NCBI GenBank assembly: GCA_016124845.1
Contig: WGMW01000003.1
Span: 27,824-91,823, forward strand
Direction of reading: 5' to 3'
DNA length: 64,000 nt
Source of the DNA: Flavobacteriales bacterium
GTDB lineage: Bacteria; Bacteroidota; Bacteroidia; UBA10329
Positions 36,140-54,078 of this stretch are shown here, piece after piece. Within the stretch, counting starts at the first letter, position 1; each line of letters starts with the position of its first letter. The translations under genes were made by a program, and so were the position numbers. The notes under the pieces were generated by a model that was not told the origin of the DNA, ran no database searches, and worked only from the letters and a program-made list of their open reading frames with translations.

Positions 36140-36380
36140 TTAAATAAGATCGCCACTGCCTCCGCTTCCCGTTAGCGTTTGCAACGCGTGCTTTCTTACC
36201 TGAAAACCGCCATCAGTCCTAACCGTCTGATAACCAGCGTTCTCAGTCCACTCCCGATCTATCTCCGTCTTCTCCCGATCATTCTCGGTCGAGTCCCGAT
36301 CATTCTCGGTCGAGTCCCGATCTATCTCGGTCAAGCCCCGATCTATCTCGGTCAAGCCCACGATCTATCTCAGTCTTGCC
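36140..36380. repeat. Left copy of a large inverted repeat. It has about 110 bp of unique sequence plus an array of six 21-bp tandem repeats (CCCGATCWWTCTCGGTCRAGY).
   Basis: Six tandem units at 36253-36380. 36205-36252 is homologous in reverse complement to 53997-54040. ORFs 36140..36361 (-) and 36179..36481 (+) are 7-aa-periodic translations of the array. Confidence 0.7.
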
Positions 36381-36589
36381 CCAAAAATCTACCCTTAAAG
36401 CACCGATCAACCTCTGTTCAGTCCCGGGTATTCACCAAAGGGCAACAACTCATATCAGTTTTAATTAAAAGATGCCAGTAGAACCGCGGCCTTCCCTCTT
36501 GGCTGGTCAGCCTATCATAATCTGAGCCCCCAAAAGAACACGCAAATCCACGTATCCCCGAACTTCCGAACCTTACTAAATTCGCGCCC

Positions 36590-37456
36590 ATGAGCGAATG
36601 GAGCGGAAAGAGTAGAGGAAACGCCTTAGGTTACTGGTTCTTCATCTTCTTTATGAAGCATCTGGGCCTTGGGTTCACCTACGGTTTCCTGCATTTTGTG
36701 GTGCTGTATTTCTTCCTGTTCTCGTGGAGCAGCAGCAAATGGATCTACCGCTACTACCGCGATGGCCTGCGCTATGGCGTACTGAAAAGCATTGCGGGCA
36801 TTTACCGCACCTACTACGTGTTCGGGCAGGTAATTATAGACAAGGTGGCCATGGCATCGGGCATCAAAGACCGCTTTAACCTAACGCACAACGGGGCCGA
36901 GCACATCCGCAACATGGTAGAGAACCAGACGGGCGGCATTCTTATTTCGGGCCACATGGGCAATTGGGAAATAGCCAGCCACCTGATGCGCGGCTATGGC
37001 GGCAAGGTGAACGTGGTGATGTACGATGAGGAGCACCAGCAGATAAAGAAGCAGATGGACGGCACCACGGGCGGCCGCAAGTTCAACGTAATACCCATTA
37101 AGGACGATATTTCGCACGTATTCCTCATCAGTAAAGCCCTGCTGAACAAGGAATTGGTGTGCATACACGGAGACCGCTTCCGCGAAGGCATGCGTACTCT
37201 CAAAGAGGATTTTCTGGGCAAGGAAGCGCAGTTTCCTTACGGTCCGTTTGCCATTGCCGCCAAGTTCGATGTGCCCAAGGTTTTCGTGTACGGCTTTAAG
37301 ACCGGAACGTACGATTACAGCTTCTACTGCACGCAACCCATAGAGGGCAAATTGAAGCCCGAACTTTTACTCACAAAGTATGTTGATGAAATGGCCCACA
37401 TGGTGCGGAAATACCCGAACCAGTGGTTCAATTTTTACGACTTTTGGAAGCCTTAA
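36590..37456 (+). CDS. Lysophospholipid / lipid A-type acyltransferase (LpxL/HtrB-like).
   Basis: N-terminal transmembrane helix. The HxxxxD-type motif GHMGNWE is present. A typical pigment-cluster acyltransferase. Confidence 0.65.
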   Translation: MSEWSGKSRGNALGYWFFIFFMKHLGLGFTYGFLHFVVLYFFLFSWSSSKWIYRYYRDGLRYGVLKSIAGIYRTYYVFGQVIIDKVAMASGIKDRFNLTHNGAEHIRNMVENQTGGILISGHMGNWEIASHLMRGYGGKVNVVMYDEEHQQIKKQMDGTTGGRKFNVIPIKDDISHVFLISKALLNKELVCIHGDRFREGMRTLKEDFLGKEAQFPYGPFAIAAKFDVPKVFVYGFKTGTYDYSFYCTQPIEGKLKPELLLTKYVDEMAHMVRKYPNQWFNFYDFWKP

Positions 37457-37464
37457 CATGAGTT

Positions 37465-37568
37465 AGCCACAGATTCACGGATTAGCACTGATTTTTCACA
37501 GAATATATTCGCAAAGCGAAAAGAAAACAATCTGTGTTTTTTCTGTGAAAATCTGAGCATCTGTGGCT
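37465..37568. repeat. Palindromic family element.
   Basis: AGCCACAGATTCACGGATTAGCAC...GTGAAAATCTGAGCATCTGTGGCT. Confidence 0.7.
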
Positions 37569-37584
37569 CTTACATGTTTTTTGA

Positions 37585-38004
37585 ATGAAAGAATTAACCA
37601 ACAGCACAACTTTCCGAGTACGGTTCAGCGAAGTGGACAGCCTGCGCATAGTATGGCATGGCAATTTTCTGAAGTATTTTGAAGATGGGAGAGACGCTTG
37701 GGCCAAGCAGTACGATTTCGATTTTACCGATGTGTACGAGCAGCACGGGCTGCTGATGCCATTGGCGTCATCGCACATGGATTACAAGTATCCGTTGCGG
37801 TACAACGAGATCGGGCTGGTGGAAACAACCTTTGTCAATTCGCCTGCGGCCAAGATGATCTTCCGCTTTAAGGTGTACAACGAGGATAGAACGCAGCTGA
37901 AGGCAACAGGCGAAACGGTGCAGGTTTTCATGGACACGGACCACGTGTTGCAACTGAACACACCACCGTTCTTCGAAGAGTGGAAACAAAGGCATGGTTT
38001 GTAA
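37585..38004 (+). CDS. Hotdog-fold acyl-CoA/ACP thioesterase (4HBT/YbgC-like).
   Basis: RVRFSEVDSLRIVWHGNFLKYFEDGRDAW is the hotdog thioesterase N-terminal signature. Confidence 0.7.
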   Translation: MKELTNSTTFRVRFSEVDSLRIVWHGNFLKYFEDGRDAWAKQYDFDFTDVYEQHGLLMPLASSHMDYKYPLRYNEIGLVETTFVNSPAAKMIFRFKVYNEDRTQLKATGETVQVFMDTDHVLQLNTPPFFEEWKQRHGL

Positions 38005-38135
38005 ATGAATTGGACAGAAAATACACAGCTATTTCGCTTCTTTTTCGAGGCTCAGAACCTGCGTATAGCAGAGTTAAACAAAGGTTATAGAACGAAGAAA
38101 AAGGACGAAAGAGCGAGTAGGGATTTTCAATTTGT

Positions 38136-39287
38136 TTGCGAACAATGCCTAAAGTACGGACTGGTTTGAGCGAGGTTTACGTAGGCGCAAAATCTGTTAT
38201 CTGCCCCTTGGGCGATACACCCGCCAAGGTGTATGATGCCATGCTACGTGGCGAAACAGGTTTGCAGCAGGTGGAGCAGCCGTTCGGGGTGGAAACCACC
38301 AGCCACGTGGGGCTGATACCCAACAGTTTCATCATAGAGGAACATATAGACAGCACCAAGCTGGAGAATATGCTGGCCAAGTGCTACGAGCATTCGGTAA
38401 GCAAGCTGCGCTTCGACCCCTTTCAGGACGAGGACGGCCTGGTGATCATCTGCACGACCAAGGGCAACATTGATAAGATAGATAGGGACAACGACCCGCG
38501 CTTGCCGCTTACGCGATTGAGCAAGTTCATGCGGCAGTCGTTCGATCTGGCCAATGAACCGATAATCATCAGCAATGCCTGTATTTCGGGCGTGTTGAGC
38601 ATCATTACCGCAGCGCGTTTGATACGTGCTGGCAAGTACGAACACGTATTGGTGTTGGGTGGCGATGTGGTTTCGGAATTCACCCTTTCGGGATTTGCTG
38701 CTCTGCACGCCTTGACGGAAGGTGTGTGCAAGCCATACGATAAGAACAGAACGGGCATCAACCTGGGCGAAGCAGCCGCAGGTCTGGTGCTTTCGAATGA
38801 CGATACGCTATTTAAAGGAAGATGCGATGAGTACGTGTCGGGCGCCAGTGCCAACGATGCGAACCATATTTCGGGTCCATCCCGAACGGGAGAAGGGCTG
38901 CACCGCAGCATAGAACGGACGTTGAACCCTGCTTCGGTCAGTGCCACGCAGATAGGTTATCTGTCGGCCCACGGAACGGGCACTTCCTTTAATGATGAGA
39001 TGGAAAGCATAGCGTTTGAGCGCAGCGGACTGTCTGATGTTCCCATCAACAGCATGAAAGGCTATTTCGGCCACACGCTGGGCGCGGCAGGTGTGATAGA
39101 AACCCTCCTCGGATTGGAAGCCATGAAGCGCAAGGAACTTGTTGCTTCGCTTGGTTATGAGGAACAAGGCGTTTCTCGACTCATGAACATCATCACAGCA
39201 ACCACTCAGCCCACCTCGGGTTATTTCCTCAAGACCGCATCAGGTTTTGGCGGATGCAATGCGGCAGCTTTATTCAAGACGAGATGA
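38136..39287 (+). CDS. Beta-ketoacyl synthase.
   Basis: ISNACISGVLSI is the active Cys. SAHGTGTSFND and GHTLGAAG follow. GFGGCNAA is at the C-terminus. Confidence 0.75.
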   Translation: MRTMPKVRTGLSEVYVGAKSVICPLGDTPAKVYDAMLRGETGLQQVEQPFGVETTSHVGLIPNSFIIEEHIDSTKLENMLAKCYEHSVSKLRFDPFQDEDGLVIICTTKGNIDKIDRDNDPRLPLTRLSKFMRQSFDLANEPIIISNACISGVLSIITAARLIRAGKYEHVLVLGGDVVSEFTLSGFAALHALTEGVCKPYDKNRTGINLGEAAAGLVLSNDDTLFKGRCDEYVSGASANDANHISGPSRTGEGLHRSIERTLNPASVSATQIGYLSAHGTGTSFNDEMESIAFERSGLSDVPINSMKGYFGHTLGAAGVIETLLGLEAMKRKELVASLGYEEQGVSRLMNIITATTQPTSGYFLKTASGFGGCNAAALFKTR

Positions 39288-39312
39288 AATTGAGTACCTT
39301 GGAGGCTGAAAA

Positions 39313-39534
39313 ATGTTGGTCATGAGCACGAAAGAACTGATTTCGAAAATAGACGCGCTTCCTCCTGAATTCCGAAGGGAAGTGGAAGATTTCATTGACT
39401 TTCTGAAGCAGAAATTGGAACGTGAGGAAACGAAGAAACCTCTTGAAAAACGACAGTTCGGCTATGCCAAGGGCTTTTTCAAAATGTCTGACGATTTCGA
39501 TGAACCATTGGAGGATTTCAAAGATTATATGTGA
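39313..39534 (+). CDS. Antitoxin (DUF2281-like) paired with the downstream PIN toxin.
   Basis: 73 aa. Its end overlaps the start of the downstream PIN gene by 4 bp. Confidence 0.5.
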   Translation: MLVMSTKELISKIDALPPEFRREVEDFIDFLKQKLEREETKKPLEKRQFGYAKGFFKMSDDFDEPLEDFKDYM

Positions 39535-39917
39535 TGAATATTCTCCTTGATACGCACGCGTTTGTTTGGTTCATGAACGCGGATGGTAAGTTTCCTAAGC
39601 ATCTTATCAAGGACATTGAGAATTTTGAGAACACCTGCTATTTGAGTGTTGCCAGCCTTTGGGAAATGGCCATCAAGGTAAATCTTGGTAAACTTGAACT
39701 GGTTGATGATTTCGAGAACATTCTGGAATTCTGTTCTTCCAACAGGATTATTCTTCTGCCCATTGAATTCGAAGACACACGGTCGGTAATTGGTCTTCCA
39801 GACCATCATCGCGACCCTTTCGATAGAATGTTAGTGGTTCAGGCCAATCGGCAAGAGGCAATTCTCCTTACCAAAGACCGCATGTTTGACCGCTATGAAG
39901 TTCAGACCCGTTGGTAA
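39531..39917 (+). CDS. vapC: PIN-domain ribonuclease toxin (VapC).
   Basis: ILLDTHAFVWF carries the first acidic residue, SLWEMAIK the second, and the later DPFDRMLVVQA the third. Confidence 0.65.
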   Translation: MMNILLDTHAFVWFMNADGKFPKHLIKDIENFENTCYLSVASLWEMAIKVNLGKLELVDDFENILEFCSSNRIILLPIEFEDTRSVIGLPDHHRDPFDRMLVVQANRQEAILLTKDRMFDRYEVQTRW

Positions 39918-39955
39918 GTGTCATCTCTTGAAAACCCCTTTCTTCGCGAACTGAT

Positions 39956-40558
39956 TTGAGTTTGAGCCTGAAAACATATTGCCGCATCAAGGACAACGAG
40001 GTTCACATCAATGGCGAACTCTTCTGTCAGCACATGGACGAGGAACCATTCCTACGGTCGGTTTACAAGCACATCGGGCTCAGTTACCCGAAGTTCTTCA
40101 AGATGGATGCGCTTTCGCAACTTGGTTTCCTTGGTGCCGAAATGACGCTGATGCGTTCCGAATTGGAAACGTATGCCGATGATGAAGTGGCGGTGGTGTA
40201 TTCCAACCGTTCCTCCAGTTTGGAAACAGACCATGCGTACTACAACTCGCTGAAGGAAAGCGGCATTGCCAGTCCTGCGCTGTTCGTGTACACGCTTCCG
40301 AACATTGAAGTGGGCGAGATATGCATCCGCCACAAGTTGTATGGCGAGAACAACTTCCTAATCACCGAGCGGTTTGATGCTGCGCAACTCTTGGAGCAAT
40401 GCGAGGCGCTGTTCGCGGATAATGCCGCCAAGGCCGTGCTCATTGGCTGGACCGAAGTGAATGGAGAGGAACACGATGGTTTCTTCGCGTTCATCACCAA
40501 CTCAGGAGTTGACGAATTGACAGCGGAACATTTGACAGATTTGTATTTAGACAGATGA
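39956..40558 (+). CDS. KAS-related protein lacking the catalytic Cys, chain-length-factor-like.
   Basis: ALFVYTLPNIEVGEICIRHKLYGENNFL resembles the region around the KAS active site, but has no Cys. Confidence 0.45.
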   Translation: MSLSLKTYCRIKDNEVHINGELFCQHMDEEPFLRSVYKHIGLSYPKFFKMDALSQLGFLGAEMTLMRSELETYADDEVAVVYSNRSSSLETDHAYYNSLKESGIASPALFVYTLPNIEVGEICIRHKLYGENNFLITERFDAAQLLEQCEALFADNAAKAVLIGWTEVNGEEHDGFFAFITNSGVDELTAEHLTDLYLDR

Positions 40559-40567
40559 ACATGATAA

Positions 40568-40649
40568 AGCCACAGAAACACAGATTTACACAGAATGAAA
40601 AAGGAATTTTTTCTGTGAAAACCTCAGTGTCTTCAGTGCCTCTGTGGCT
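40568..40649. repeat. Palindromic family element.
   Basis: AGCCACAGAAACACAGATTTACACAGAA...TTCTGTGAAAACCTCAGTGTCTTCAGTGCCTCTGTGGCT. Confidence 0.75.
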
Positions 40650-40664
40650 AACTTATGTGAATGA

Positions 40665-41858
40665 ATGATGGAGATTGCTGTCACAGGCATAGGAGCGATT
40701 TCGGCCATCGGCAACGATGTGCAGGAAAACTTGGCTTCGCTTTTAGCGAAGAAAACAGGCGTTGGTAAAACCGAACTGCTCAGATCCAAGCTCACAGAAA
40801 CACATCTTTTAGGAGAAGTGAAGTTGAGCAACGACCAACTGAAAGCAGGCCTGAACTGGAAAGGCGATGCTGTTTCCAGAACCACGCTTCTGAGTTCTTG
40901 GGCCATGAAAGAGGCCATCGAGCAATCGGGTTTTGAGATGGACAACCATGTTGGGTTGGTGTCATCGACCTCGGTAGGCGGCATGGACAGAAGCGAGGGC
41001 TTCTTCGAGCCTTACTACCTCGAACAGGACTTTTCGAATGTGTTCCTACTCGGAACGCACGATTGCGGCACCTGTACCAAACAGGCCGCAGCGCATTTCG
41101 GCATTACAGGATATGCAACAACCATAAGCACGGCCTGTTCTTCTGCCGCCAATGCCATTGCAATGGGCGCACGCTTGCTACGTCAAGGCAAGTTGAAGCG
41201 CGTCATCGTGGGCGGAACAGATGCCTTGTGCCGATTTACGGCCAATGGCTTCAACTCGTTGATGATCTTGGACACGGAATGGTGCAAGCCGTTCTCTGCC
41301 AATCGCGCTGGATTGAACTTGGGAGAAGCTGCGGCTTATCTCGTGCTGGAAAGCAAGGAAGAGGCGGAAGCACGTGGCGCGAAGATCCACGGTCTGGTAA
41401 CAGGTTGGGCCAATACGAACGATGCGTACCATCAAACGGCTTCATCACCTGATGGAAATGGGGCGTTCATGGCCATGTCGCAAGCGTTGGAGAAAGCAGG
41501 TTTGAAGTCGACAGACATCGGCTACATCAACGCCCACGGTACTGGCACACAGAATAACGACCAGTCGGAAAGTATTGCCATCCACCGAGTTTTTGGGGCG
41601 CAGAAACCGCCTATCAGTTCTACCAAAGCTTATACAGGTCATACGTTGGCTGCGGCTGGAGCCATTGAGGCGGTGTATTCGCTATTGGCGTTGAAGGAGC
41701 AAAAGTTCCTTCCCAATTTGAACTATCAGGACCCGATTGAGGACAACGATTGGAAACCGCAGTTGGAAGTGGAGAGTGGTGAGATTAATCATGTGCTTTC
41801 CAACTCATTCGGGTTTGGCGGTAATAATTCAACGGTGATTTTTAGTAGGTACAGTTGA
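40665..41858 (+). CDS. Beta-ketoacyl-ACP synthase II-like.
   Basis: ISTACSSAANAI is the active Cys. NAHGTGTQNND and TGHTLAAAGAIE follow. GFGGNNS is at the C-terminus. Confidence 0.8.
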   Translation: MMEIAVTGIGAISAIGNDVQENLASLLAKKTGVGKTELLRSKLTETHLLGEVKLSNDQLKAGLNWKGDAVSRTTLLSSWAMKEAIEQSGFEMDNHVGLVSSTSVGGMDRSEGFFEPYYLEQDFSNVFLLGTHDCGTCTKQAAAHFGITGYATTISTACSSAANAIAMGARLLRQGKLKRVIVGGTDALCRFTANGFNSLMILDTEWCKPFSANRAGLNLGEAAAYLVLESKEEAEARGAKIHGLVTGWANTNDAYHQTASSPDGNGAFMAMSQALEKAGLKSTDIGYINAHGTGTQNNDQSESIAIHRVFGAQKPPISSTKAYTGHTLAAAGAIEAVYSLLALKEQKFLPNLNYQDPIEDNDWKPQLEVESGEINHVLSNSFGFGGNNSTVIFSRYS

Positions 41859-41875
41859 CATGATTGAGCCACAGA

Positions 41876-41958
41876 TGCACAGATTTACACAGAAATTTCA
41901 CAGAGATTTATTTTCTCCGTGTATCTCAAATACTCCAGTTTTCTCTGTGCAATCACCA
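41876..41958. repeat. Palindromic family element with a degenerate right arm.
   Basis: AGCCACAGATGCACAGATTTACACAGAAATTTCACAGAG...TTTTCTCTGTGCAATCACC. Confidence 0.6.
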
Positions 41959-42044
41959 TGCGTTAAGGTAGGTTCGCATATTATTTCACTTCGTTCAATG
42001 AGAACGCTTCGCTTAGTTCGTACTCCATTCGTAATTAGTAACCC

Positions 42045-43031
42045 GTGTATTTAGGAGCCGCCAGTTGCATAACGTATCAGGACACGTTTGGAGGTGAAAA
42101 ACCTTGGAGCGCGTTGGTGGAAGCAAATGTGGAAAGCCAACTCATTCAGCCTGACTACAAGGAATTTGTAAGCCCTGCGATGCTGCGTAGAATGAGCAGC
42201 GCGCTGAAAATGGGCGTGGCAGGAGGGAAGTCGTGCTTGCAGAAATCAGGTTTGGAAACCTGTGATGCCATTACGGTAGGTACAGGACTTGGCTGTGTGA
42301 GAGACACCCTGCGCTTTATGAAAGTGATGTACGAGGAAGCTGAGACAGGACTTTCCCCGACCTCGTTCATTCAGTCAACACACAATTCTATTGCTGGGCA
42401 GATTGCGTTGCTGCTGGGAAATCATGGTTACAACATGACGCATGTGCAAGGCGGGTTGTCGTTGGGCTATGCGCTCTCCGATGCTGAACTGCTTATTGGA
42501 GAAGGTGATGCCGAAACGGTGCTTGTCGGTGCGGTGGATGAGAAAACAGATGAGTTGGTTGAACTGCTTACCAAGCTTGCTGCCACCTCCAACTACGAGT
42601 TGCCAGCCATTGGAGAAGGTGGAGCATTCTTCTTGGCATCCAAAGAGAAGTTGGGTTCTTCCGTTGCGAAAGTGGTGGAGTTGAGTTTGGTAAATGACCC
42701 CTCCGTCCGCCTGAGGCGGACACCTCCCCTTTCAAGGGGAGGAACTGGCGCGCTGATCCAAGGTCAGAGCGAAGAGCAACTCCCCTCCTTGGAAGGAGGG
42801 GGTGGGGGAGGTCAGATTGACCTCCTCCTTTCAAACACAGGCGAAGGCTTTAATTACGTGAAGTATTCTGGAGAGCATTTCACTTCTGCTGGTTTTGGGT
42901 TGTTTATGGCATTGAAAGCATTTGAAGCTGGTACAGTAAACTTTAATGGCTCTTCCGTTGAACCAAAAAGCATTCTTGTCCGCCACAGTCTGTTCGGACA
43001 GGAGTTCAGTATTCTATTAGAGAAGGTTTGA
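42045..43031 (+). CDS. KAS-like protein without the catalytic Cys, carrying an in-frame repeat-element insertion.
   Basis: KAS-like N-terminal region (TSFIQSTHNSIAGQIALLLGNHGYNMT). An odd Gly/Pro/Arg-rich insert reads VNDPSVRLRRTPPLSRGGTGALIQGQSEEQLPSLEGGGGGGQIDL. Confidence 0.55.
   Translation: MYLGAASCITYQDTFGGEKPWSALVEANVESQLIQPDYKEFVSPAMLRRMSSALKMGVAGGKSCLQKSGLETCDAITVGTGLGCVRDTLRFMKVMYEEAETGLSPTSFIQSTHNSIAGQIALLLGNHGYNMTHVQGGLSLGYALSDAELLIGEGDAETVLVGAVDEKTDELVELLTKLAATSNYELPAIGEGGAFFLASKEKLGSSVAKVVELSLVNDPSVRLRRTPPLSRGGTGALIQGQSEEQLPSLEGGGGGGQIDLLLSNTGEGFNYVKYSGEHFTSAGFGLFMALKAFEAGTVNFNGSSVEPKSILVRHSLFGQEFSILLEKV
42690..42835. repeat. GC-rich palindromic element inserted in frame. It belongs to the same family as 690-860.
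   Basis: Shares the hairpin TCCGCCTGAGGCGGAC with the 7291-7325 repeat. CCTCCCCTTTCAAGGGGAGG and GGGGGAGGTCAGATTGACCTCCTCC match the IcmF insert. Confidence 0.55.
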
Positions 43032-45563: not shown

Positions 45564-45584
45564 TCGAGTTTTAACACCTTTGCG

Positions 45585-45644
45585 GTCATGCTGAACTCGT
45601 TTCAGCATCTAATCAATAGACCCTGAAACAAGTTCAGGGTGACG
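45585..45644. repeat. Two-hairpin element in inverted orientation relative to 27090-27151.
   Basis: GGTCATGCTGAACTCGTTTCAGCATCTAATCAATAGACCCTGAAACAAGTTCAGGGTGACG. Confidence 0.75.
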
Positions 45645-45655
45645 AATCGGAAAGA

Positions 45656-47198: not shown

Positions 47199-47218
47199 TT
47201 TTATTTTTCCTTCCAACC

Positions 47219-47587: not shown

Positions 47588-47620
47588 GTCTGGGGTTCTT
47601 TGTCCATTAATTCCCGATTG

Positions 47621-48193
47621 CTATAGGCTTTTCACCTCCTCATGCCGAAAGCAATCCATTGTGTGATCGTTCACCATGCCTGTGGCTTGCATGTGTGCGT
47701 AAACAACCGTTGGTCCAACGAATTTGAACCCACGTTTCTTGAGGTCTTTGCTGATGGCTTCGGCCAATTCTGTTTTAGCGGGAATATCTTTCAGTGATCT
47801 CAGGTCAGGCTGCAACGGTTTTCCATCCACAAAATCCCAGATGTATTTACGGAACGAACCGAAATCTTTCTGAACTTGAATGAATGCCTGTGCGTTGGAA
47901 ACCGCAGCACGGATCTTTGCGCCATTGCGGATAATGCCAGCGTCTTCCATCAGTAAGGCGATCTTCGCTTCATCAAAAGCCGCCACTTTCTCCACATCAA
48001 AGCCTTCAAAAGCTCTTCGGAAGTTCTCGCGCTTGCGCAACACGGTGATCCAACTCAAACCTGCTTGGAACGTTTCCAGAATCAGGAATTCGAACAATTT
48101 CTGCTCGTCATAGAGCGGAACGCCCCATTCCTCATCATGATATTGGATGTAAAGCGGGTCGTCAGAAACCCAGCCGCAACGCACTTTTTCCAT
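47621..48193 (-). CDS. tag: DNA-3-methyladenine glycosylase I.
   Basis: RCGWVSDDPLYIQYHDEEWGVP and ETFQAGLSWITVLRKRENFRRAF are highly characteristic of Tag. Confidence 0.85.
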   Translation of the reverse strand: MEKVRCGWVSDDPLYIQYHDEEWGVPLYDEQKLFEFLILETFQAGLSWITVLRKRENFRRAFEGFDVEKVAAFDEAKIALLMEDAGIIRNGAKIRAAVSNAQAFIQVQKDFGSFRKYIWDFVDGKPLQPDLRSLKDIPAKTELAEAISKDLKKRGFKFVGPTVVYAHMQATGMVNDHTMDCFRHEEVKSL

Positions 48194-48222
48194 TGCGCAA
48201 GTATGTAAAAGGGTAGAAGTGG

Positions 48223-48441
48223 TTACTTCTTCTTCACCACCTTCGGGTCGTTGATGAACTTCCCGTTTACCGATTCGCCCAGAATCACAACTTCCTTCGA
48301 CTTCTCGTAATCCTTCACCGCCAGCATCATCTCATCTTCCGTATCTCTTCTGATCTTAATGCCCGAGGTTGCACCCGTGTTCCGCACTTCAATGTAGTAG
48401 CCGTCTTTCAGCTTCTTCGGTCTTGTAGGAGGTCTTCCCAT
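48223..48441 (-). CDS. Small hypothetical protein of 72 aa.
   Basis: ORF with a plausible start and a Lys-rich C-terminus. Confidence 0.35.
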   Translation of the reverse strand: MGRPPTRPKKLKDGYYIEVRNTGATSGIKIRRDTEDEMMLAVKDYEKSKEVVILGESVNGKFINDPKVVKKK

Positions 48442-48743
48442 ATCGTCTTTAACTCTTTTGCTACGCCAGTTTATCGAACATTCGTGTTTGGCGTTTCATT
48501 CTTGTCTTGGTGGGGAAATATAGGTAATTGAACCATACTCGAACCAATTATATGTTAATTAGTCTTAACCACCTGTTGTTCATTGCGTTTTCAATGTATG
48601 GCCGTAGGATTATTTGGGCGTTCCCACGCACATAATGCGAGGCAGTTATGTGCGCGGTCAGGCTGTCCGCTATATTCCCGCAAATGCGGGAGATGCCGCT
48701 TCCATCCTTAACGCGCGCCATCTGCCAGCCGCATCAAAAAACA

Positions 48744-48780
48744 GAAACGGTGGCCGAATTCAACTATCGGCCACCGTTTT
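48744..48780. terminator. Rho-independent-like hairpin downstream of the minus-strand lipoprotein gene.
   Basis: AAACGGTGGCCGA, then ATTCAACTATC, then GGCCACCGTTTT. The stem is 10-12 bp and is followed by a T-run. Confidence 0.5.
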
Positions 48781-48802
48781 CAGTTTCGATCAACATGCTT
48801 CA

Positions 48803-49195
48803 TCACATCGGATGCACATGAAATGATTCGGTGTCGGTCGTCATCGCATCATCATGGTCAGTCGCAGTGGCCGTTATCACGAAATTCGAAGGTTCCGCAG
48901 TTGTGAAAACCGTGTCCATATTCAGCGAATAGGTGGCCGCATCAGGATGCGCATGCATGTGAAAAACCGTCAGGCTGTCCACTTCACGGACGATCTCAAC
49001 CGACAGTTCATGCAGCTGATCATCATCTGTGAACTCAATATGCAGATTGACCGTGCTATCGCTCATGTACACGCCACCAGCGGCAGTTGGACTTATGATG
49101 GTTACGGTTGGAGGCTCATTTTTCACCGTTTTGGTGCAGGATGAAACAGCCACGACAATTGCTGCCGCGAGCATCATCAAAAGGGTCTTTTTCAT
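48803..49195 (-). CDS. His-rich secreted lipoprotein.
   Basis: Lipobox VAVSSC. FHMHAHPD and HVHPM motifs suggest metal binding. Confidence 0.45.
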   Translation of the reverse strand: MKKTLLMMLAAAIVVAVSSCTKTVKNEPPTVTIISPTAAGGVYMSDSTVNLHIEFTDDDQLHELSVEIVREVDSLTVFHMHAHPDAATYSLNMDTVFTTAEPSNFVITATATDHDDAMTTDTESFHVHPM

Positions 49196-49202
49196 TGAAT
49201 AA

Positions 49203-50117
49203 TTATATCGTTATCAGAATCGACAAATTCACTTGATGCTTTGGCGTGGTTTCTCCTTGGCTCAGGTTGAAAAACATCGGTTGAGAATAACTCACCGAAC
49301 CGATCAACCGCTTGAAACTCACTTGCAGGCCGCCTGTGGCCGAAACCTGATAACCGCCTGAATGCGTCTGCAACCGTTTTCCGTCAATGTCTTGGAATGC
49401 ATAATCCAAGTTGACTCCCACTTGCGGCATGAAGGTCACGTTTCTGTAAACCGTCCAATAAAATACTCCGACCATCGAAGTGATTCGATCGCCATATTTA
49501 TAATGGTCGCGATTCGTTGTGTTCAAACGGTAATTGGCCGCAGCACTTACGCCCCAACGCTTTATGCGCGCCAAGTAACGCAGGCTCATGTCCACATCCC
49601 AACTTCCTGTTCCTGGCTGAAGATTCCGATGCAGCAGTTCGCCATTTGACTTCAGATCGGTTTTTCCCGTGGGAGTTTTCAATCCTGTGCCCACAAACAC
49701 ATGGTGGCGCACCTTCTTTGTTAAGCTATCTGGCGAAGCGAAAACGGTGTAATTGGCACCAAGCCAAACGTCCCCCAGTCCATAACTCGTAGAGGAACCT
49801 TCGGTGTCTGAGATCTGCGAGCGATACACCAACGGCACCGCTGCCAGCAACTGCACCCGTTTGTGTGGGTAGTAGCTTCCGCGCAGTTCCATCGTGTGGA
49901 AGTATTCACGGCTTCGCGCAGTTTTTGCCGACACATCCAGCAAACTGGTGTGTCGGGTTTCAAATTGCTGGAACTGATACCTCAGGCCGACATAATGACG
50001 ACCGAACTGGGGTACAATTCCCATATATCCGCTTGAGGCACAGCCGCATTGGTCGCAGGCTTGCGCGCCCAAACTTGACATGGCCAACAGGCCAAGCCCA
50101 AGTATGAATTGTCTCAT
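49203..50117 (-). CDS. Outer-membrane beta-barrel protein.
   Basis: Signal peptide. Alternating amphipathic beta-strands and a C-terminal aromatic residue. CDQCGC lies just after the signal peptide. Confidence 0.5.
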   Translation of the reverse strand: MRQFILGLGLLAMSSLGAQACDQCGCASSGYMGIVPQFGRHYVGLRYQFQQFETRHTSLLDVSAKTARSREYFHTMELRGSYYPHKRVQLLAAVPLVYRSQISDTEGSSTSYGLGDVWLGANYTVFASPDSLTKKVRHHVFVGTGLKTPTGKTDLKSNGELLHRNLQPGTGSWDVDMSLRYLARIKRWGVSAAANYRLNTTNRDHYKYGDRITSMVGVFYWTVYRNVTFMPQVGVNLDYAFQDIDGKRLQTHSGGYQVSATGGLQVSFKRLIGSVSYSQPMFFNLSQGETTPKHQVNLSILITI

Positions 50118-50170
50118 TAAAAATGTGTGTGAGTTGAAAATCGCGGCTTGGAGGCCGCAGTAACGTCAAT

Positions 50171-50545
50171 TCACACTACGGGCGGTGGATGGAAAATGGA
50201 ACTTGGGATATCCGCTCCGTGTAGATTGGAAATGTTTGGAACGAGGCGTGTCTCGTTCTCAAATTGCCTCAACTCAAAATCTGAGGTCTGCGTAAAGAAC
50301 AGCAGCACTTCTTCCAATTGCGATGGAAGCGCGGGCATTTTTTTCGAGCCTTCTTCTGATTTCTTCAACTGCTTGGCCAAATGACATTTCCCGTTGCAGG
50401 TGTTCATTTTTGTGTCTTTCTGCACGCAGATGGTCTGGCTAATTAATTGCTGATGGATCTTGAAATCCAAGAACACGAAACTCTTCAGAAAAACATTGCT
50501 GAAAAGCAGTCCGATCAATCCTATGGCGGCTATGGCGCGAAGCAT
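50171..50545 (-). CDS. Hypothetical small membrane protein. The gene call is uncertain.
   Basis: The track ORF 50171..50653 would overlap the glycosyltransferase start. The internal Met at 50545 avoids the overlap. Confidence 0.25.
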   Translation of the reverse strand: MLRAIAAIGLIGLLFSNVFLKSFVFLDFKIHQQLISQTICVQKDTKMNTCNGKCHLAKQLKKSEEGSKKMPALPSQLEEVLLFFTQTSDFELRQFENETRLVPNISNLHGADIPSSIFHPPPVV

Positions 50546-50635
50546 CACGGCAAATATACCAAGCGATTCAACTGCAAATATGATTTTCGGCACTCTCGGT
50601 TCATTTATACGGTATCCTATTTTTGCAACTACAGC

Positions 50636-51718
50636 ATGAGCTCGCAGCCGCAACGCATTCTCTTCTTGGTTCCCTACCCATTGGGAATTGCGCCCAGCCA
50701 GCGTTTCCGCTTCGAGCAGTACTTCGATAAGCTGACGGAAGCAGGTTTTGAGTTTGATGTAAAGCCGTTCTTGGACGAACGCGCCATGATCTACCTCTAC
50801 GAACCTGGCAACTTTTTCCGCAAGGTTTGGAAGGTGAAGCTCGGTTTGTTGAAGCGATTCCTCCAGCTATTTTCTATTGCGAAGTACGATTACGTTTTCA
50901 TTCATCGCGAAGCCGCAGCCATCGGTCCGCCCGTTTTTGAATGGATCATCACGAAGGTTTTTAGGAAGAAGGTCATCTTTGATTTTGATGACGCCATTTG
51001 GCTGAAGAACACGTCAAGCACCAATTCGGTTATTGCGTTCTTTAAGCGGTATCGCAACGCTAACGATACCTGCAAATGGGCGTGGAAGGTTAGTTGTGGG
51101 AACGATTACTTGGCCGATCATGCGCGGCAATTCAATCAGAACGTTTTTGTCAATCCGACCACGATTGATACGGAGCATCATCACAATCAGGTGAAGAAGT
51201 TCTCGGGTGAGAAGATCACCATTGGTTGGACAGGTACGCATTCCACCATCAAATACTTGGATGCGCTTATTCCGATCTTGAAGAAGCTGGAAGGTGAGTT
51301 CGATTTCAACTTTGTGGTAATCGCTGACCGCAAGCCCGATTTCGACCTGAAAGGACTTCAGTTCGTTCCATGGAACAAGCAATCGGAGATCGATGACCTG
51401 CTGAAAATGGATGTGGGCGTGATGCCGCTGGAGAACGACAAATGGGCGAAAGGCAAGTGCGGCTTCAAGGCGTTGCAGTACATGGCGCTGGGCATTCCCG
51501 CCATTGTTTCGCCTGTTGGGGTGAATACGAAGATCGTTGACCACGAGGTGAACGGTTGGATATGTGACACACCCGAGGAATGGGAGCAGACGCTTCGTTC
51601 CATCTTGGAGAAGAAGGTAGATCTGAAGGATTTTTCTACCGCTGCCCGAACCAAGATCGAGGAGCATTATTCGGTCAAGTCCAACACCCGCGATTTTCTA
51701 CTTTTGTTCGCCAATTAA
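50636..51718 (+). CDS. GT-B fold glycosyltransferase (GT1/GT4-like).
   Basis: The C-terminal ALQYMALGIPAIVSPVGVNTKIVDHEVNGWIC is typical of GT4 nucleotide-sugar binding. The likely start is MSSQPQRILFLV at 50636. Confidence 0.65.
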   Translation: MSSQPQRILFLVPYPLGIAPSQRFRFEQYFDKLTEAGFEFDVKPFLDERAMIYLYEPGNFFRKVWKVKLGLLKRFLQLFSIAKYDYVFIHREAAAIGPPVFEWIITKVFRKKVIFDFDDAIWLKNTSSTNSVIAFFKRYRNANDTCKWAWKVSCGNDYLADHARQFNQNVFVNPTTIDTEHHHNQVKKFSGEKITIGWTGTHSTIKYLDALIPILKKLEGEFDFNFVVIADRKPDFDLKGLQFVPWNKQSEIDDLLKMDVGVMPLENDKWAKGKCGFKALQYMALGIPAIVSPVGVNTKIVDHEVNGWICDTPEEWEQTLRSILEKKVDLKDFSTAARTKIEEHYSVKSNTRDFLLLFAN

Positions 51719-51731
51719 AACGACATTTTAT

Positions 51732-51810
51732 AGCCACAGAAACACAGATTTCCACTGAATAAATGAAATCCTTCAGCGAAAACCTCTGTGCCTTCTGTGT
51801 TTCTGTGGCT
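51732..51810. repeat. Palindromic family element.
   Basis: AGCCACAGAAACACAGATTTCCACTG...AAACCTCTGTGCCTTCTGTGTTTCTGTGGCT. Confidence 0.75.
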
Positions 51811-51853
51811 ATCTAATTTGAATACATTCACTCCGATAAATAACTCTATCTCC

Positions 51854-52963
51854 ATGTCTGATACTACTGAACTTACCGAGCTGAAAAGCACCGCGCTGAC
51901 CGCGAAACACATTGAATTGGGAGCCAAAATGGTTCCGTTTGCAGGCTACAACATGCCATTGCAGTACGAAGGACTGCTGGTTGAACATGACACGGTTCGC
52001 AATGCGATGGGCGTGTTCGATGTGTCGCACATGGGTGAGTTCATCGTGCGTGGTGAGGGCGCGTTCGAGTTGGTTCAGAAGGTGACTTCGAATGACGTTT
52101 CTGCCTTGGTGGACGGAAAGGTGCAGTACTCGTGCCTTCCGAACGAGACGGGCGGTATTGTGGATGACCTTTTGGTTTACCGCATTGATGAGAAGACGTA
52201 CATGTTGGTGGTGAACGCTTCCAATATCGACAAGGATTGGGCGCATATCAGCAAGTACAACACGGCTGGGGTGGAGATGATCAACATTTCGGATAAGACC
52301 ACGCTTTTGGCGGTTCAAGGCCCGAAGGCTGCGGAGGCTTTGCAGAAGTTGACGGACATCAACCTTTCGGAGATGACCTACTATACGTTTAAGAAGGGTG
52401 TTTTTGCGGGTGTGGAGAATGTGCTGGTGAGTGCTACGGGCTACACAGGTGCAGGTGGTTTCGAGATCTACTTTGAGAACAAGGATGCCGACAAGATCTG
52501 GAATGCCGTTTTTGAAGCGGGTGCTGAATATGGCATCAAGCCGATAGGCTTGGGCGCGCGTGACACGCTGCGTTTGGAAATGGGTTTCTGTCTGTACGGA
52601 AATGATATTGACGATACGACTTCTCCGCTGGAAGCGGGATTGGGTTGGATTACCAAGTTCAACGGTGAGTTTACCAATTCGGCTGCGTTGCTGAAGCAGA
52701 AGGAGGAAGGCGTTTCCAAGAAATTGGTAGGGTTTGAGATGATCGACCGTGGTATTCCGCGCCATGATTATGTGATTGTGGATGCGGATGGCAAGGAGAT
52801 CGGGAAGGTTACTTCGGGCACGCAGTCGCCAAGTTTGAAGAAGGCCATCGGTCTTGGGTATGTGAACACGGAGTTTTCGAAAGTGGGCACGGAGATCTAC
52901 ATCAGCATCCGCGATAAGAAGATAAAGGCGGTTGTGGTAAGGCCACCGTTTTATAAGGGGTGA
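51854..52963 (+). CDS. gcvT: Glycine cleavage system aminomethyltransferase (T protein).
   Basis: [36 protein letters not shown] is the canonical GcvT N-terminus. Confidence 0.9.
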
Positions 52964-53003
52964 TTGAGTTTATAAAGTTTATAAAGTTGACAGGTTCAGC
53001 TGA

Positions 53004-53771
53004 TTGAGTTCAATCGCAAATCGTCAATTGCAAATTGTCAATCGCAGATCATTGAACTCAGTAGAAGTCTGTTTCTCTCCACCGTTGTTCGACCTTTTCG
53101 CGAGGAAGGGAAGCATTGTGGTGGTGGTTGACATCTTCCGTGCGACCTCGGCCATGGTCACGGCTTTCCATCATGGGGCGGCCAGCATCATTCCGGTTTC
53201 AACCATTAAAGAGGCGAAGGACTACAAGGACAAAGGTTTCTTGGCAGGAGGTGAGCGGAACGGGGAAGTGGTGAAGGGATTTGAGTTCGGGAACAGTCCG
53301 TTCTCGTATATGAACGAAGGCATCAAGGGCCGTGAGATTGCGCTGACGACCACCAACGGCACCCGCGCCATCAACATTGCCAAGAAGGGAGCCGATACGG
53401 TTCTCATTGGTTCATTTCTGAATCTTCAAGCGTTAGCTGATCACATTCAAACCCAAGGCAAGGATGTGGTGATCTTCTGCGCGGGTTGGAAGGACCGTTT
53501 CAATATGGAGGATAGCCTTTTTGCGGGTGCACTCACCAATTTGCTACTTACCAGCGGCAAGTTCTATTCGGATTGCGACAGCGCGAATGCCAGCAGTCTG
53601 GTTTACCGCACGGGCCGCAAAAATCTGATGACCTTTTTGAAGAGTTGTTCTCATCGGAAGCGTTTGGCGCATCTTCACCTTGAGAAGGATGTGGAATACT
53701 GTCTTCAGCGGGATGTAACAGACGTGATCCCTGTGCTGCGAGATGGGAAGTTGGTGCGATTGACCGACTAA
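53004..53771 (+). CDS. comB: 2-phosphosulfolactate phosphatase (ComB family).
   Basis: VVVVDIFRATSAMVTAF and TTTNGTRAI are present. The start codon choice is uncertain. Confidence 0.7.
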   Translation: MSSIANRQLQIVNRRSLNSVEVCFSPPLFDLFARKGSIVVVVDIFRATSAMVTAFHHGAASIIPVSTIKEAKDYKDKGFLAGGERNGEVVKGFEFGNSPFSYMNEGIKGREIALTTTNGTRAINIAKKGADTVLIGSFLNLQALADHIQTQGKDVVIFCAGWKDRFNMEDSLFAGALTNLLLTSGKFYSDCDSANASSLVYRTGRKNLMTFLKSCSHRKRLAHLHLEKDVEYCLQRDVTDVIPVLRDGKLVRLTD

Positions 53772-53912
53772 GCTGTAAGACTGCGGTTCCGCGAGTTTGT
53801 CTTTCTATTTACCGAAATGATTTGTTGCTTTTTTGAGAAAGGCCGTTGCTTGACCGTGGATGTGTGTGCTCGGACCGATGGTGATCGATGCTTGTCTGGT
53901 AGATTTTTGTGG

Positions 53913-54040
53913 TAAGACCGAGAATGATCGGGGCTTGACCGAGATAGATCGGGAGAAGACGGAGATAGATCGGGACTCGACCGAGAATGATCGGGAATGG
54001 ACTGATGATGTTGGTTATCAGGTGGTTACGGTTTGTGTCG
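53913..54040. repeat. Right copy of the large inverted repeat. It has four inverted copies of the 21-bp unit plus about 45 bp of adjoining sequence.
   Basis: GACCGAGAATGATCGGG and GACCGAGATAGATCGGG are reverse complements of the 36253-36380 units. 53997-54040 matches the reverse complement of 36205-36252. Confidence 0.7.
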
Positions 54041-54078
54041 GGTTTTAGGTCGGTCATTGGCCGATCATACGTATTTCG

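Follow-up and report, generated by a model that had tools for sequence, protein, structure and literature searches.

Two arrays of a 21-bp tandem repeat face each other in inverted orientation across a block of pigment and other genes, which raises the question of what such a pair is and whether it acts on the block that it brackets. A reading of the sequence alone had proposed that the repeats could mediate inversion or could delimit a composite mobile region. The window, i.e., the whole stretch of 64 kb that was analyzed, was compared with DNA of relatives, given here as L numbers. Each array was found to lie within a non-coding module of ∼310 bp, here named E, in which 3 to 6 units of 21 bp stand between a 5' and a 3' flank. 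The two copies are termed E_L (left) and E_R (right), and the features of the locus are as follows.

27031..36568: strain-specific insert of 9.54 kb between the ACP and acyltransferase genes (BLAST against L132)
27348..27438: another 21-bp array, 4.3 copies of the unit GAGGCATACCGGAAAGACGCG, at the ACP-side edge of the 9.54-kb insert
36140..36361, minus strand: reading frame over the E_L array, public as the 71-aa hypothetical protein MBI1286133.1 (GC178_01000) and judged spurious
36195..36252, plus strand: E_L 5' flank, towards the low-GC island cargo, homologous to the reverse complement of 53997-54057
36253..36375, plus strand: E_L array, six 21-bp units with the core CCCGATC-NN-TCTCGGTC
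36376..36505, plus strand: E_L 3' flank, towards the acyltransferase gene
36569..53771, plus strand: block S, 17.2 kb, acyltransferase to comB (Pfam, and synteny in L122/L138, L130/L131, L126, and L132)
53765..53915, minus strand: E_R 3' flank, beginning at the comB stop codon (53769-53771)
53916..53996, minus strand: E_R array, four 21-bp units with the spacers GAGT, TTCT, AAGC, and TTAC
53997..54057, minus strand: E_R 5' flank, towards the variable cargo on the right
54058..56465: variable cargo of the right slot, between E_R and a conserved S1/P1-nuclease-like gene (Pfam)

Two copies of a non-coding module

Tandem Repeats Finder, a 17-mer search, and an inverted-repeat search agreed on the presence of both reported arrays. 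The left array (36241-36375, plus strand) had a period of 21 with 6.4 copies and 85% matches, and the right array (53915-53996, minus strand) had the same period with 3.9 copies and 77% matches. The 17-mer CCCGATCWWTCTCGGTC, with up to two mismatches allowed, occurred 10 times in the window, six times on the plus strand (36253-36375) and four times on the minus strand (53916-53995), against 0.07 matches expected in shuffled sequence; no shuffle reached 10. The units followed the pattern CCCGATC-NN-TCTCGGTC-NNNN and numbered 6 in the left array (plus strand), 4 in the right array (minus strand), 4 in L126, and 3 in L128, with degenerate units at both ends of the arrays. Within the arrays, the spacing of the motif CGRTC alternated between 10 and 11 nt, the exception being two units with a CCGTC variant. 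The internal dyad of the unit was weak, being limited to CCGA-N6-TCGG.

The inverted-repeat arms (36198-36332 and 53916-54050) were 76% identical over 135 nt, with best in-register stretches of 72 nt at 90% and 90 nt at 87%, and a second arm on the opposite side of the arrays (36358-36417 and 53874-53933) was 77% identical over 60 nt. Relaxed BLAST and MAFFT extended the homology to approximately 36195-36505 against 54057-53765. The sequence-only reading had assigned about 45 bp of unique sequence to each copy; such homologous DNA does exist, but it lies on both sides of the array and the module measures ∼310 bp. Since the homology reaches 53765, the right copy extends to the comB stop codon and takes in the terminator-like hairpin of comB. 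The description as reverse-complement copies was correct with respect to homology but not closeness, as the flanks were 65 to 67% identical and the longest exact tract common to both copies was 35 nt (36294-36328). The E_L 5' flank was 66.7% identical to its counterpart over 63 aligned nt, and the 3' flank was 64.7% identical to the right copy and 65.9 to 67.5% identical to those of L126 and L128. The two repeats are thus very probably paralogous copies of a lineage-restricted non-coding module, a judgment that covers the structural and evolutionary parts jointly.

The E_L spacers read, in order, TTCT, GAGT, GAGT, AAGC, AAGC, and TTGC, and the last unit was degenerate and shifted by one inserted base. 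The E_L 3' flank contained a conserved A-tract unit (TTGCCCCAAAAATCTACC) and a single degenerate unit (GCACCGATCA...). It also had, in decayed form (GCCAGTAGAACCGCGGCCTT), the post-comB hairpin of the right copies. In E_R this terminator-like hairpin with its T-run was seen by eye and was not flagged by an automatic terminator scan. In both copies the 3' flank points towards the conserved block and the 5' flank towards low-GC or variable cargo, a placement that results in the inverted geometry.

The left array had been taken to carry no gene. A gene, GC178_01000, is in fact annotated over it, but the judgment that the array is non-coding stands: the encoded protein matched only itself among 5.8 billion protein clusters, and in L126 the same frame hits a stop directly past the array (read by eye). 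Protein coding was therefore rejected, the frame having no relatives and not being conserved in the other copies.

Conservation and probable exchange of array units

The right copy was found at the same site in L126 (GCA_020635495.1) and L128, with strand and distance from comB as in the window, so that it is inherited in place behind comB in at least two related genomes. Among the 17 units of the four arrays in these three genomes, 15 core positions were the same apart from three single-unit variants, whereas the flanks were 47 to 67% identical between copies from different genomes or sites. Positions 8 and 9 were TA or AT in the window and AG, AC, or GC in L126 and L128. Spacers of the types TTCT, GAGT, and TTAC likewise recurred across genomes. 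By our rough estimate, the probability that 15 neutral positions would all be fixed at ∼62% identity is ∼0.001. The array core thus appears conserved, as if under constraint, an argument that draws on few independent lineages because E is carried by three genomes only.

The left and right arrays of the window shared three unit types that were identical at 21/21 positions, one of them with the derived variant TCTCCGTC. In-register identity was 78/90 in the arrays and 129/196 in the flanks (Fisher P = 2e-4). As these unit types are alike despite flanks of ∼65% identity, the data point to an exchange of units between the two arrays, probably by gene conversion, provided that the flank alignments reflect true age.

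A functionless minisatellite is a rival reading of these arrays, which we consider unlikely. On this account, replication slippage creates the arrays and alters their length in dispensable intergenic DNA beside inserted cargo, a single old segmental duplication gave rise to both copies, and their inverted orientation is without consequence. The variable unit number, the passage of the array ends into degenerate units on both sides, and the failure to find promoter, RNA, or coding signals would all fit, and the decayed post-comB hairpin of the left copy looks like the passive duplication of an intergenic stretch. Further arrays of 17 to 21 bp, unrelated to E, were also present at variable junctions in the window (27348-27438 and 60756-60916) and in L132 (9340-9601), and they suggest that this DNA may tend to form arrays in general, possibly with neutral effect. 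One of their units, GAGGCATACCGGAAAGACGCG, matched the E unit at 10/21 positions, which was not significant (P = 0.63). Slippage, however, homogenizes units within one array and cannot keep the same sequence across genomes, whereas the core and spacer types are the same in four arrays of three genomes beside such divergent neighbors, with change confined to positions 8 and 9.

The bracketed block and its variable edges

The gene content listed earlier for the bracketed segment was borne out by Pfam. Block S comprises flexirubin/aryl-polyene-type genes, a PIN toxin pair, tag, glycosyltransferases, gcvT, and comB, while the genes previously described as outer-membrane proteins are conserved genes without family matches. 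It was present as a syntenic block in every relative examined. L122/L138 (∼91% nucleotide identity) and L130/L131 (∼73%) lack both copies of E and have genomic flank A, the block, and genomic flank B in the order and orientation of the window, with ACP, a gap of 5 to 6 nt where the window has its insert (L122 and L130), acyltransferase through comB, and flank B. As judged from this synteny, block S is ancestral core and stands in its ancestral orientation in the window.

Because these two E-less relatives share the order and orientation of the block, the suggestion of a composite mobile region was not borne out. Further points against it were the nature of the arms (∼300 bp, non-coding, and 65 to 90% identical), the location of between-strain variation outside the block, and the position of the left repeat itself within a variable insert. 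No transposase or recombinase was found in or beside either arm, and E does not form a mobile-element end.

Both copies are instead situated in strain-variable DNA, one at each edge of the block. BLAST identity between the window and L132 was 97.4% up to 27030 and 98.4% from 36569, with only one 26-nt hairpin common in between; L132 has a different insert of 7.2 kb between ACP and acyltransferase. The insert in the window has host-like non-coding edges with a GC content of 0.48 to 0.51 and four cargo genes with a GC content of 0.39, and E_L takes up its final ∼370 bp. E_R directly follows the comB stop codon at the head of the right slot, whose cargo comprises a small helical open reading frame (ORF), a cupredoxin with a T9SS sorting tail, and DUF1961. 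Apart from a match of ∼118 nt to the element, similarity to L126 returned only at ∼56466, where all similarity to L131 resumed as well. Between comB and the S1/P1-like gene, four genomes had four different contents.

Recombination between the inverted arrays could in principle flip the 17.2-kb block and, for example, uncouple the pigment genes lying downstream from the part of the cluster that lies upstream. Part of this earlier proposal held up: the inverted geometry is correct, the arrays show evidence of exchange and share the exact 35-nt tract, and in one species (L129, equivalent to L133-L135) comB is joined to an inverted ACP, the adjacency that an inversion breaking at the two repeat positions would create. 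This joining marks both junctions as sites of rearrangement breakage in the clade, and the block in L123 has yet another left neighbor. However, the comB-ACP junction in L129 is 52 nt long and has no array, and its other junction leads to unrelated genes rather than flank B, so that this rearrangement did not come about as a plain flip between the two repeats. In the window the orientation is the ancestral one, and the island already parts the two cluster halves. There is no invertase or integrase near, the sole transposase-like ORF being an IS110-family fragment 34 kb off, and the divergence of the arms is too great for efficient homologous crossover. By reasoning, a crossover within the arrays would leave the 3' flanks on the block ends, so that short-read contigs would look alike either way. 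An inversion switch is accordingly improbable.

We likewise give little credence to two independent insertions of a non-autonomous element of the MITE or BOX type or of a multi-site transposon end of the Tn7 or Mu kind. The modular flank-(unit)n-flank build resembles pneumococcal BOX, both copies lie in intergenic, variable DNA, and short-read contigs of the same organism end in or near E. Against these points, terminal inverted repeats and a target-site duplication were not found by eye, the insert has no transposase, and ∼222 kb of the relatives' DNA yielded only the right-site orthologues in L126 and L128. No arrays of the family were found in the JGI metagenome, IMG/VR, PLSDB, or INPHARED collections, and the spurious ORF over the array had no sibling protein. 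With flanks of 65% identity the copies are old, and a recent burst has not occurred. E was found twice in the window and once in each of L126 and L128, and was absent from the remaining ∼180 kb of relatives' DNA that was scanned. Indirect evidence speaks for a low copy number genome-wide.

A putative protein-binding array

E had no match in Rfam even at an E value of ≤1, its four-copy consensus folded at -6 kcal/mol without covariation (covariation term, +0.3), and neither a sigma-70-type nor a TAnnTTTG promoter motif was found in it. That E works as RNA, either as a small RNA or as a 5' leader whose repeated CCGA-N6-UCGG hairpins titrate an RNA-binding protein, is highly improbable: the variable dinucleotide could be the center of a 6-nt loop on a 4-bp hairpin in each unit and, for the left copy, folding of the minus strand was stronger than in shuffled sequence (z = -3.0), but the plus strand gave z = -0.6, the 3'-flank hairpin that causes the minus-strand signal is not conserved across the four copies, the stems have just 4 bp, promoter motif and Rfam match are both absent, and E_L and E_R stand in opposite relation to their neighboring genes.

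The best explanation overall, to which we assign about an even chance, is an old paralogous module carrying helically phased putative protein-binding sites. The more specific claim, that the arrays are recognition sites for a sequence-specific DNA-binding protein, is tentative and falls slightly short of even. In each unit, CCCGATC and TCTCGGTC would serve as conserved half-sites spaced by about one helical turn, with a free dinucleotide between them and a 4-nt spacer after. The 21-bp period corresponds to two helical turns, so that all sites would lie on one face of the helix, where proteins could bind cooperatively side by side as at plasmid iterons, partition centromeres, and multi-operator arrays. 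The bound complex may regulate or silence the cargo, form a boundary between the core operon and foreign DNA, or act as a rearrangement-prone obstacle to replication forks, and homology between the arrays might permit an occasional crossover inverting block S. No DNA-binding gene was found as a constant neighbor of E, and the search gave no candidate for the binding protein.

Among known systems, iterons include the 17-mers of the RK2 oriV at ∼22-bp spacing, the 22-bp iterons of R6K and pPS10, and the 12-mers of Vibrio cholerae chromosome 2, each of which contains GATC. Like E, iterons have a conserved core of ∼17 bp, a short variable spacer, direct arrays of 3 to 7 units with a two-turn period, two blocks in each unit that are separated by one helical turn, a second inverted array elsewhere, and GATC in every unit. 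Unlike iterons, E showed no initiator (rep) gene, AT-rich unwinding region, or DnaA box beside either copy and no match in 72,556 plasmid and 50,697 phage records. In three genomes its right copy is a stable part of the chromosome, located after a housekeeping-type gene. In partition centromere-like arrays, such as the 11-bp repeats of R1 parC, the 20-bp repeats of pSK41, and the heptad arrays of inc18, helically phased short repeats would similarly put many protein copies on one DNA face, but E is chromosomal, with no parA-, parM-, or parR-type genes near.

The BOX elements of Streptococcus pneumoniae, boxA-(boxB)n-boxC, are high-copy elements with 45-nt units and strong hairpins. Together with mycobacterial MIRU/VNTR, they share with E a modular, non-coding, intergenic build with conserved ends, a number of internal tandem units that varies by locus and strain, and a position abutting or overlapping gene ends. 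E differs from BOX in its 21-nt units, few copies, and lack of a convincing fold. Chromosomal inversions occur between inverted insertion sequence copies, between rRNA operons, and in Bacteroides shufflons. As in those cases, an inverted pair surrounds a multigene segment and a related species has the opposite linkage to one flank, but the arms of E are short, non-coding, and 65 to 90% identical, a recombinase is absent nearby, and the rearranged relative has no repeats.

Conserved integration hotspots, in which variable and often defense-related islands lie between core genes, resemble the sites of E as slots where close relatives hold differing low-GC cargo. To our knowledge, they have not been reported to be marked by 21-bp tandem arrays, whereas here three unrelated 21-bp arrays edge variable slots, in non-coding DNA of host-like GC content. 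PADLOC gave no match on the cargo of the window itself; in the slots of close relatives, one cargo gene was SIR2/ThsA-like and another was a DEDDh exonuclease-TPR gene.

Extent, sequence, and probable constraint of the repeat module

Both 21-bp arrays reported in the sequence-only reading were recovered with Tandem Repeats Finder, and the homology around them proved to extend further than first described. The 17-mer given in that reading, searched with ≤2 mismatches, had six plus-strand matches at 36253-36375 and four minus-strand matches at 53916-53995, with none elsewhere in the 64 kb, for which shuffled sequence gave a chance expectation of 0.07. A four-sequence profile together with relaxed BLAST extended the homology to approximately 36195-36505 versus 54057-53765. 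This delimits a module of ∼310 bp, termed E (left copy E_L, right copy E_R), in which a 5′ flank is followed by the array and then by a 3′ flank that contains a hairpin region besides two units, one a conserved A-tract unit and the other degenerate. In-register stretches of the inverted arms reached up to 90% identity over 72 nt. The two copies are mutually inverted because in both the 3′ flank points toward the bracketed segment (block S) and the 5′ flank toward variable cargo.

Repeat features of the two E copies in the window
36241-36375: array of E_L, period 21, 6.4 copies, 85% matches (Tandem Repeats Finder)
53915-53996: array of E_R, period 21, 3.9 copies, 77% matches (Tandem Repeats Finder)
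36198-36332 / 53916-54050: inverted arms, 135 nt, 76% identity (repeat finder)
36358-36417 / 53874-53933: second inverted arm on the far side of the arrays, 77%

The 17 units of four arrays, two from the window and one each from the relatives L126 (GCA_020635495.1) and L128, were found to share the core C-C-C-G-A-T-C-n-n-T-C-T-C-G-G-T-C, followed by a four-base spacer drawn from a small set (TTCT, GAGT, AAGC, and TTAC/TTGC). Written as a pattern, the unit is CCCGATCNNTCTCGGTC, with the half-sites CCCGATC and TCTCGGTC on either side of a free dinucleotide. Only three of the 17 units departed from the core: position 14 was C in two of them, and the third, which closes the left array and is decayed, had A at both position 2 and position 14. 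The free dinucleotide at positions 8 and 9 was TA or AT in 10/10 window units and AG, AC, or GC in 7/7 units of L126 and L128. The repeat core was unchanged between genomes while its surroundings had diverged by 35 to 50%.

Flank identity between E copies
Left versus right copy, window: 65-67%
Right copy versus L126/L128: 55-61%
Left copy versus L126/L128: 47-67%

By our rough estimate, the probability that 15 neutral positions would all stay fixed at ∼62% identity is near 0.001, from which we infer that purifying selection acts on the two half-sites of the unit. The motif CGRTC was spaced alternately at 10 and 11 nt along the arrays and, since the 21-bp period corresponds to two helical turns, every site falls on one face of the helix. 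Helically phased repeats are typical of iterons, partition centromeres, and multi-operator arrays. By analogy with these, the E array is most likely a protein-binding array.

The arrays had been judged to be non-coding, and this was borne out: all reading frames across them are open, yet none has real homologues. In the public annotation, the left array is covered by a gene for a hypothetical protein of 71 aa (MBI1286133.1, GC178_01000). This minus-strand frame matched itself alone among 5.8 billion protein clusters, and in L126 it was seen by eye to reach a stop directly past the array; the annotated gene is probably spurious. The plus-strand frame, compared with 1.8 billion representatives, gave nothing but weak matches to xPxxLGx heptad repeats of mixed origin, one of them from a sponge; these repeats are unrelated and were rejected as homologues. 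A protein-coding heptad repeat therefore finds no conserved open frame with homologues on either strand.

Neither did E resemble a promoter or a structured RNA. No Rfam family matched E at the gathering score or at E ≤ 1, and no tRNA was found in it. Folding of the left copy gave z = −0.6 for the plus strand and z = −3.0 for the minus strand; the minus-strand fold was not conserved, and the four-copy consensus reached −6 kcal/mol without covariation, so that an RNA reading was rejected. Promoter motifs of the sigma-70 type and the Bacteroidetes TAnnTTTG type were absent from every E copy. In a terminator scan, a single hairpin was flagged, immediately upstream of the left copy; the hairpin following comB, which was read by eye, went unflagged.

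Block S and the slots at its edges

The segment between the arms had been suggested as a possible composite mobile region, an idea refuted by comparison with relatives (L numbers denote DNA fetched from them). Flank A, block S, and flank B were found on single contigs, in the order and orientation of the window, in two relatives, L122/L138 (∼91% nucleotide identity) and L130/L131 (∼73%). Both are without any E, and in both the gap from the ACP gene to the acyltransferase gene is only 5 to 6 nt. As the order is kept in relatives that have no arms, block S is not cargo delivered by the repeats but part of the core, and its orientation in the window is ancestral.

Segments compared among genomes
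Flank A, upstream half of the pigment cluster: MMPL-acyltransferase-methyltransferase fusion, tyrosine ammonia-lyase-type lyase, ketoreductase, ketosynthase, ACP
Block S, 36569-53771, 17.2 kb: the bracketed segment, acyltransferase to comB
Flank B, downstream: S1/P1-nuclease-like gene, CoA-transferase, acetyltransferase, dihydroorotate dehydrogenase, and onward

No transposase was found in the arms, which are ∼300 bp long and whose sole ORFs are the repeat-derived frames without homologues; the adjoining genes are OMP-decarboxylase-like, acyltransferase, comB, and a small ORF. Near identity of the arms was likewise not observed, with 76% over 135 nt, 65 to 67% in the flanks, and 35 nt as the longest exact tract common to both. 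What had looked like a mobile or invertible cassette of 17.5 kb proved to be conserved core, with a variable-cargo slot on each side, and both slots are edged by the same old non-coding repeat module. Pfam searches of the window identified a Por_Secre_tail sorting domain and a gene set of the flexirubin/aryl-polyene type, markers indicative of Bacteroidota, and exact protein matches led to the MAG of an uncultured “Flavobacteriales bacterium” with a 100,736-bp contig. Identity around the ACP-acyltransferase junction was a mosaic: against L122 the window was 96.6% identical in the ketosynthase/ACP region and 83.6% in the acyltransferase, and against L132 (GCA_020635475.1) 97 to 98% in the flanks and ∼90% in a ketosynthase inside block S.

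At the left edge, identity between L132 and the window was 97.4% as far as 27030 and 98.4% from 36569 onward. The window insert therefore spans 27031-36568, with E_L as its last part. Between the same ACP and acyltransferase genes, L132 carries a different insert of 7.2 kb (L132 2736-9979).

Inserts at the ACP-acyltransferase junction
Window, island cargo, 27548-35981: 1717-aa protein, 549-aa protein, two OMP-decarboxylase-family proteins
L132 insert: ParE-type toxin pair, CarboxypepD_reg protein, two unknown proteins, SIR2/ThsA-like protein

In the window insert, the four cargo genes had a GC content of 0.39, against ∼0.49 in their surroundings, and the non-coding edges, including E, were host-like at 0.48 to 0.51. 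The 1717-aa protein had no match in Pfam or PADLOC, the 549-aa protein gave weak matches of the TCAD9/APH kinase-like kind, and the cargo was not recognized as a known defense system. The junction was empty in two genomes, occupied by different low-GC islands in two, and rearranged in two. It is a recurrent point of insertion and rearrangement in one clade, inside the pigment operon. The backgrounds of the two island-bearing genomes are near-identical.

In a Logan short-read assembly of the same organism, the island formed a separate contig (window 27124-36099). The start of this contig coincides with a hairpin repeat (GTCACCCTGAACTTGTTTCA... / GCTGAAACAAGTTCAGCATGAC) at 27095-27151, just downstream of the ACP gene, of which 26 nt recur in inverted orientation, at 96% identity, in L132 (2815-2840). 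A further Logan contig starts inside the left array (36299) and ends at ∼51806 in another repeat family, the “CACAGA”-rich dispersed repeats (AGCCACAGAnnCACAGATTT...). These lie at 37453-37577, 40556-40662, 41855-41917, and 51723-51823, often as inverted pairs, and fill intergenic gaps of block S where the same genes abut or overlap in L122. In L132 and L123, 32-bp repeats of related sequence follow shortly after the acyltransferase gene.

At the right edge, the window and L126 were dissimilar beyond E as far as the S1/P1-like gene, where similarity returned. Four genomes had four different contents between comB and this gene.

Contents of the right slot
Window: E, small ORF, cupredoxin with a T9SS tail, DUF1961
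L126: E, DEDDh exonuclease-TPR protein
L131: a 417-aa protein
L138: hydrolase and TetR regulator

In L126, whose comB is 91% identical, E has four units, and in the metagenome contig L128 it has three; both lie on the same strand as in the window, directly after comB, and the right copy is therefore an inherited one. Contig L127 ends 11 nt past the comB stop (5494-5505) and L128 ∼110 nt beyond E (3756-4132), both with the comB protein of L126. Therefore, E or the adjoining variable cargo breaks assemblies in other samples too.

Two copies of E lie in the 64-kb window and one at the orthologous site in relatives, and the profile found no other in ∼222 kb of relatives. Searched as two-unit patterns, E arrays were absent from 241 million JGI metagenome records and IMG/VR, the one match, inside a high-GC glycosidase gene, being rejected as chance. 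Distant BLAST of the left copy gave no match in plasmid and phage collections. The bare 17-mer is too short a pattern and returned at least 120 single chance matches in unrelated taxa of the genome collection, none tandem among the matches listed. E is a non-coding module, restricted to one lineage and apparently low in copy number.

Probable exchange between the copies and the question of inversion

Three unit types were identical at 21/21 positions between the left and right window arrays, one of them bearing the derived core variant TCTCCGTC with a TTCT spacer. When units were matched by spacer, the central dinucleotide of each type was the same in both window copies and different in L126 and L128. 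Identity was 78/90 for the arrays in register versus 129/196 for the flanks (Fisher P = 2e-4), and the flanks of the window copies were as distant from each other as from those of copies in other genomes. Identical array units between flanks so far apart make gene conversion of the arrays, following an old duplication or import, the simplest reading. Judged by their units, the two E copies in one genome appear to evolve together. The left copy looks secondary, because it holds a decayed form of the hairpin that follows comB, closer to the version in L126 than to the window's own; this decayed hairpin has no obvious use at its present site.

The sequence-only reading had also suggested that the repeats could mediate inversion, and here the evidence divided. 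Inverted repeats do stand at both ends of block S, their arrays have seemingly exchanged sequence, and comB adjoins ACP elsewhere. In one rearranged species (L129 and L133-L135, mutually identical and ∼80% identical to the window), comB leads, across a 52-nt gap, into inverted ACP, ketosynthase, ketoreductase, and lyase genes, and this comB-ACP adjacency is the product expected of an inversion between the two repeat positions. However, E is absent from the comB-ACP junction of that species, and its other junction leads elsewhere than to flank B, with an unrelated block of M61 peptidase type upstream of the acyltransferase gene. A simple inversion in this species was rejected, since the 417-aa genes that seemed to link the left flank to flank B are unrelated; the rearrangement was therefore more complex than one flip. 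In L123, trmD/rplS lie upstream of the acyltransferase gene. From these rearranged neighbors it follows that both edges of block S are recurrent breakpoints in the clade.

No recombinase was found in or beside the segment by Pfam on the window ORFs, a few short ones excepted, or in the gene tables. The sole related match lies at 34 kb distance, on the minus strand at 1812-2402, where a 196-aa ORF resembles the N-terminal DEDD domain of IS110-family transposases (E = 2.8e-20); it is apparently fragmentary or was called too short. A crossover within the arrays would keep each 3′ flank at its end of block S, so that short-read contigs, which for the source samples break within or close to the arrays, would look alike for both orientations. 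Overall, inversion by the repeats is unlikely as an active mechanism, and an active inversion switch seems to us improbable.

Class of the element and other arrays

Comparison with known systems placed E among the bacterial intergenic tandem-repeat and iteron-like elements, a broad class to which it belongs. With regard to MITE or BOX elements, inspection of the alignments revealed no terminal inverted repeats or target-site duplication at the homology boundaries, and no stable hairpin fold of that kind was present (z = −0.6 on the plus strand, with no conserved structure). The iteron-type trait is present, in that 17-bp core direct repeats are arranged in tandem at a 21-bp period with half-sites every 10/11 nt. 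No Rep-like family that might supply an initiator occurred among the neighboring genes, and neither an AT-rich unwinding element nor DnaA boxes were noticed on reading the sequence. E is thus built in the manner of iterons, partition centromeres, and multi-operator arrays, but a partner protein, a rep or par gene, and an origin feature were not found. Most likely, E works like these systems without qualifying as a member of any.

Tandem arrays of 17 to 21 bp, unrelated in sequence, recurred at variable junctions, and the commonest period among arrays scoring ≥50 was 21 bp.

Other tandem arrays
27348-27438: different 21-bp array, at the ACP-side edge of the window insert
27545-27592: further 21-bp array, at the start of the 1717-aa ORF
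L132 9340-9601: 21-bp array of ∼12 units, at the acyltransferase-side edge of the L132 insert
60756-60916: 17-bp array AGTTGACGAAGAGATAG, 9.5 copies, 90% matches

Homology among the 21-bp arrays (window 27348, E, and L132) was rejected, with best rotations of 10 to 11/21, no better than shuffles. The recurrence of such arrays either weakens the case for a specific function of E, should DNA of this kind tend to form arrays in general, or hints at a class of binding arrays associated with junctions. If a binding protein exists, the arrays would offer a handle on how uncultured Flavobacteriales organize or regulate acquired DNA; if none exists, E is an ordinary minisatellite.

The most far-reaching reading, to which we give very little credence, is that the arrays are protein-bound, phased boundary elements at rearrangement-prone hotspots of cargo swapping, with the inverted pair occasionally flipping block S as a heritable on/off state of the pigment. 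The pair would trade sequence and rarely cross over; on crossing over, the 17-kb block would flip with respect to flank A of the flexirubin-type cluster. The unrelated 17- to 21-bp arrays elsewhere would then be the same device with other specificities.

The 17-bp array at 60756-60916 is another tandem array at a junction of structural variation. It begins at the end of the dihydroorotate dehydrogenase gene and takes up the gap of 226 nt that precedes the HMGL-like gene. These two genes lie 3.3 kb apart in L138, with genes for a U32 peptidase and a ferredoxin and two more genes in between, and a similar set occurs in L131.

A cyclic-nucleotide-binding (Crp/Fnr-like) protein is encoded on the minus strand at 16616-17239, in a stretch that is flanked by the MMPL fusion gene and by the FAD oxidoreductases and differs from the matching region of L122 and L130. 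Speculatively, it is a candidate DNA-binding partner of the dyad-like sites. In the whole window minus the two elements, CTAG was nearly absent (14 observed versus 245 expected, ratio 0.06) and CCGG was depleted (0.24), with GATC as expected (0.94); the CTAG and CCGG depletion may stem from restriction-modification pressure.
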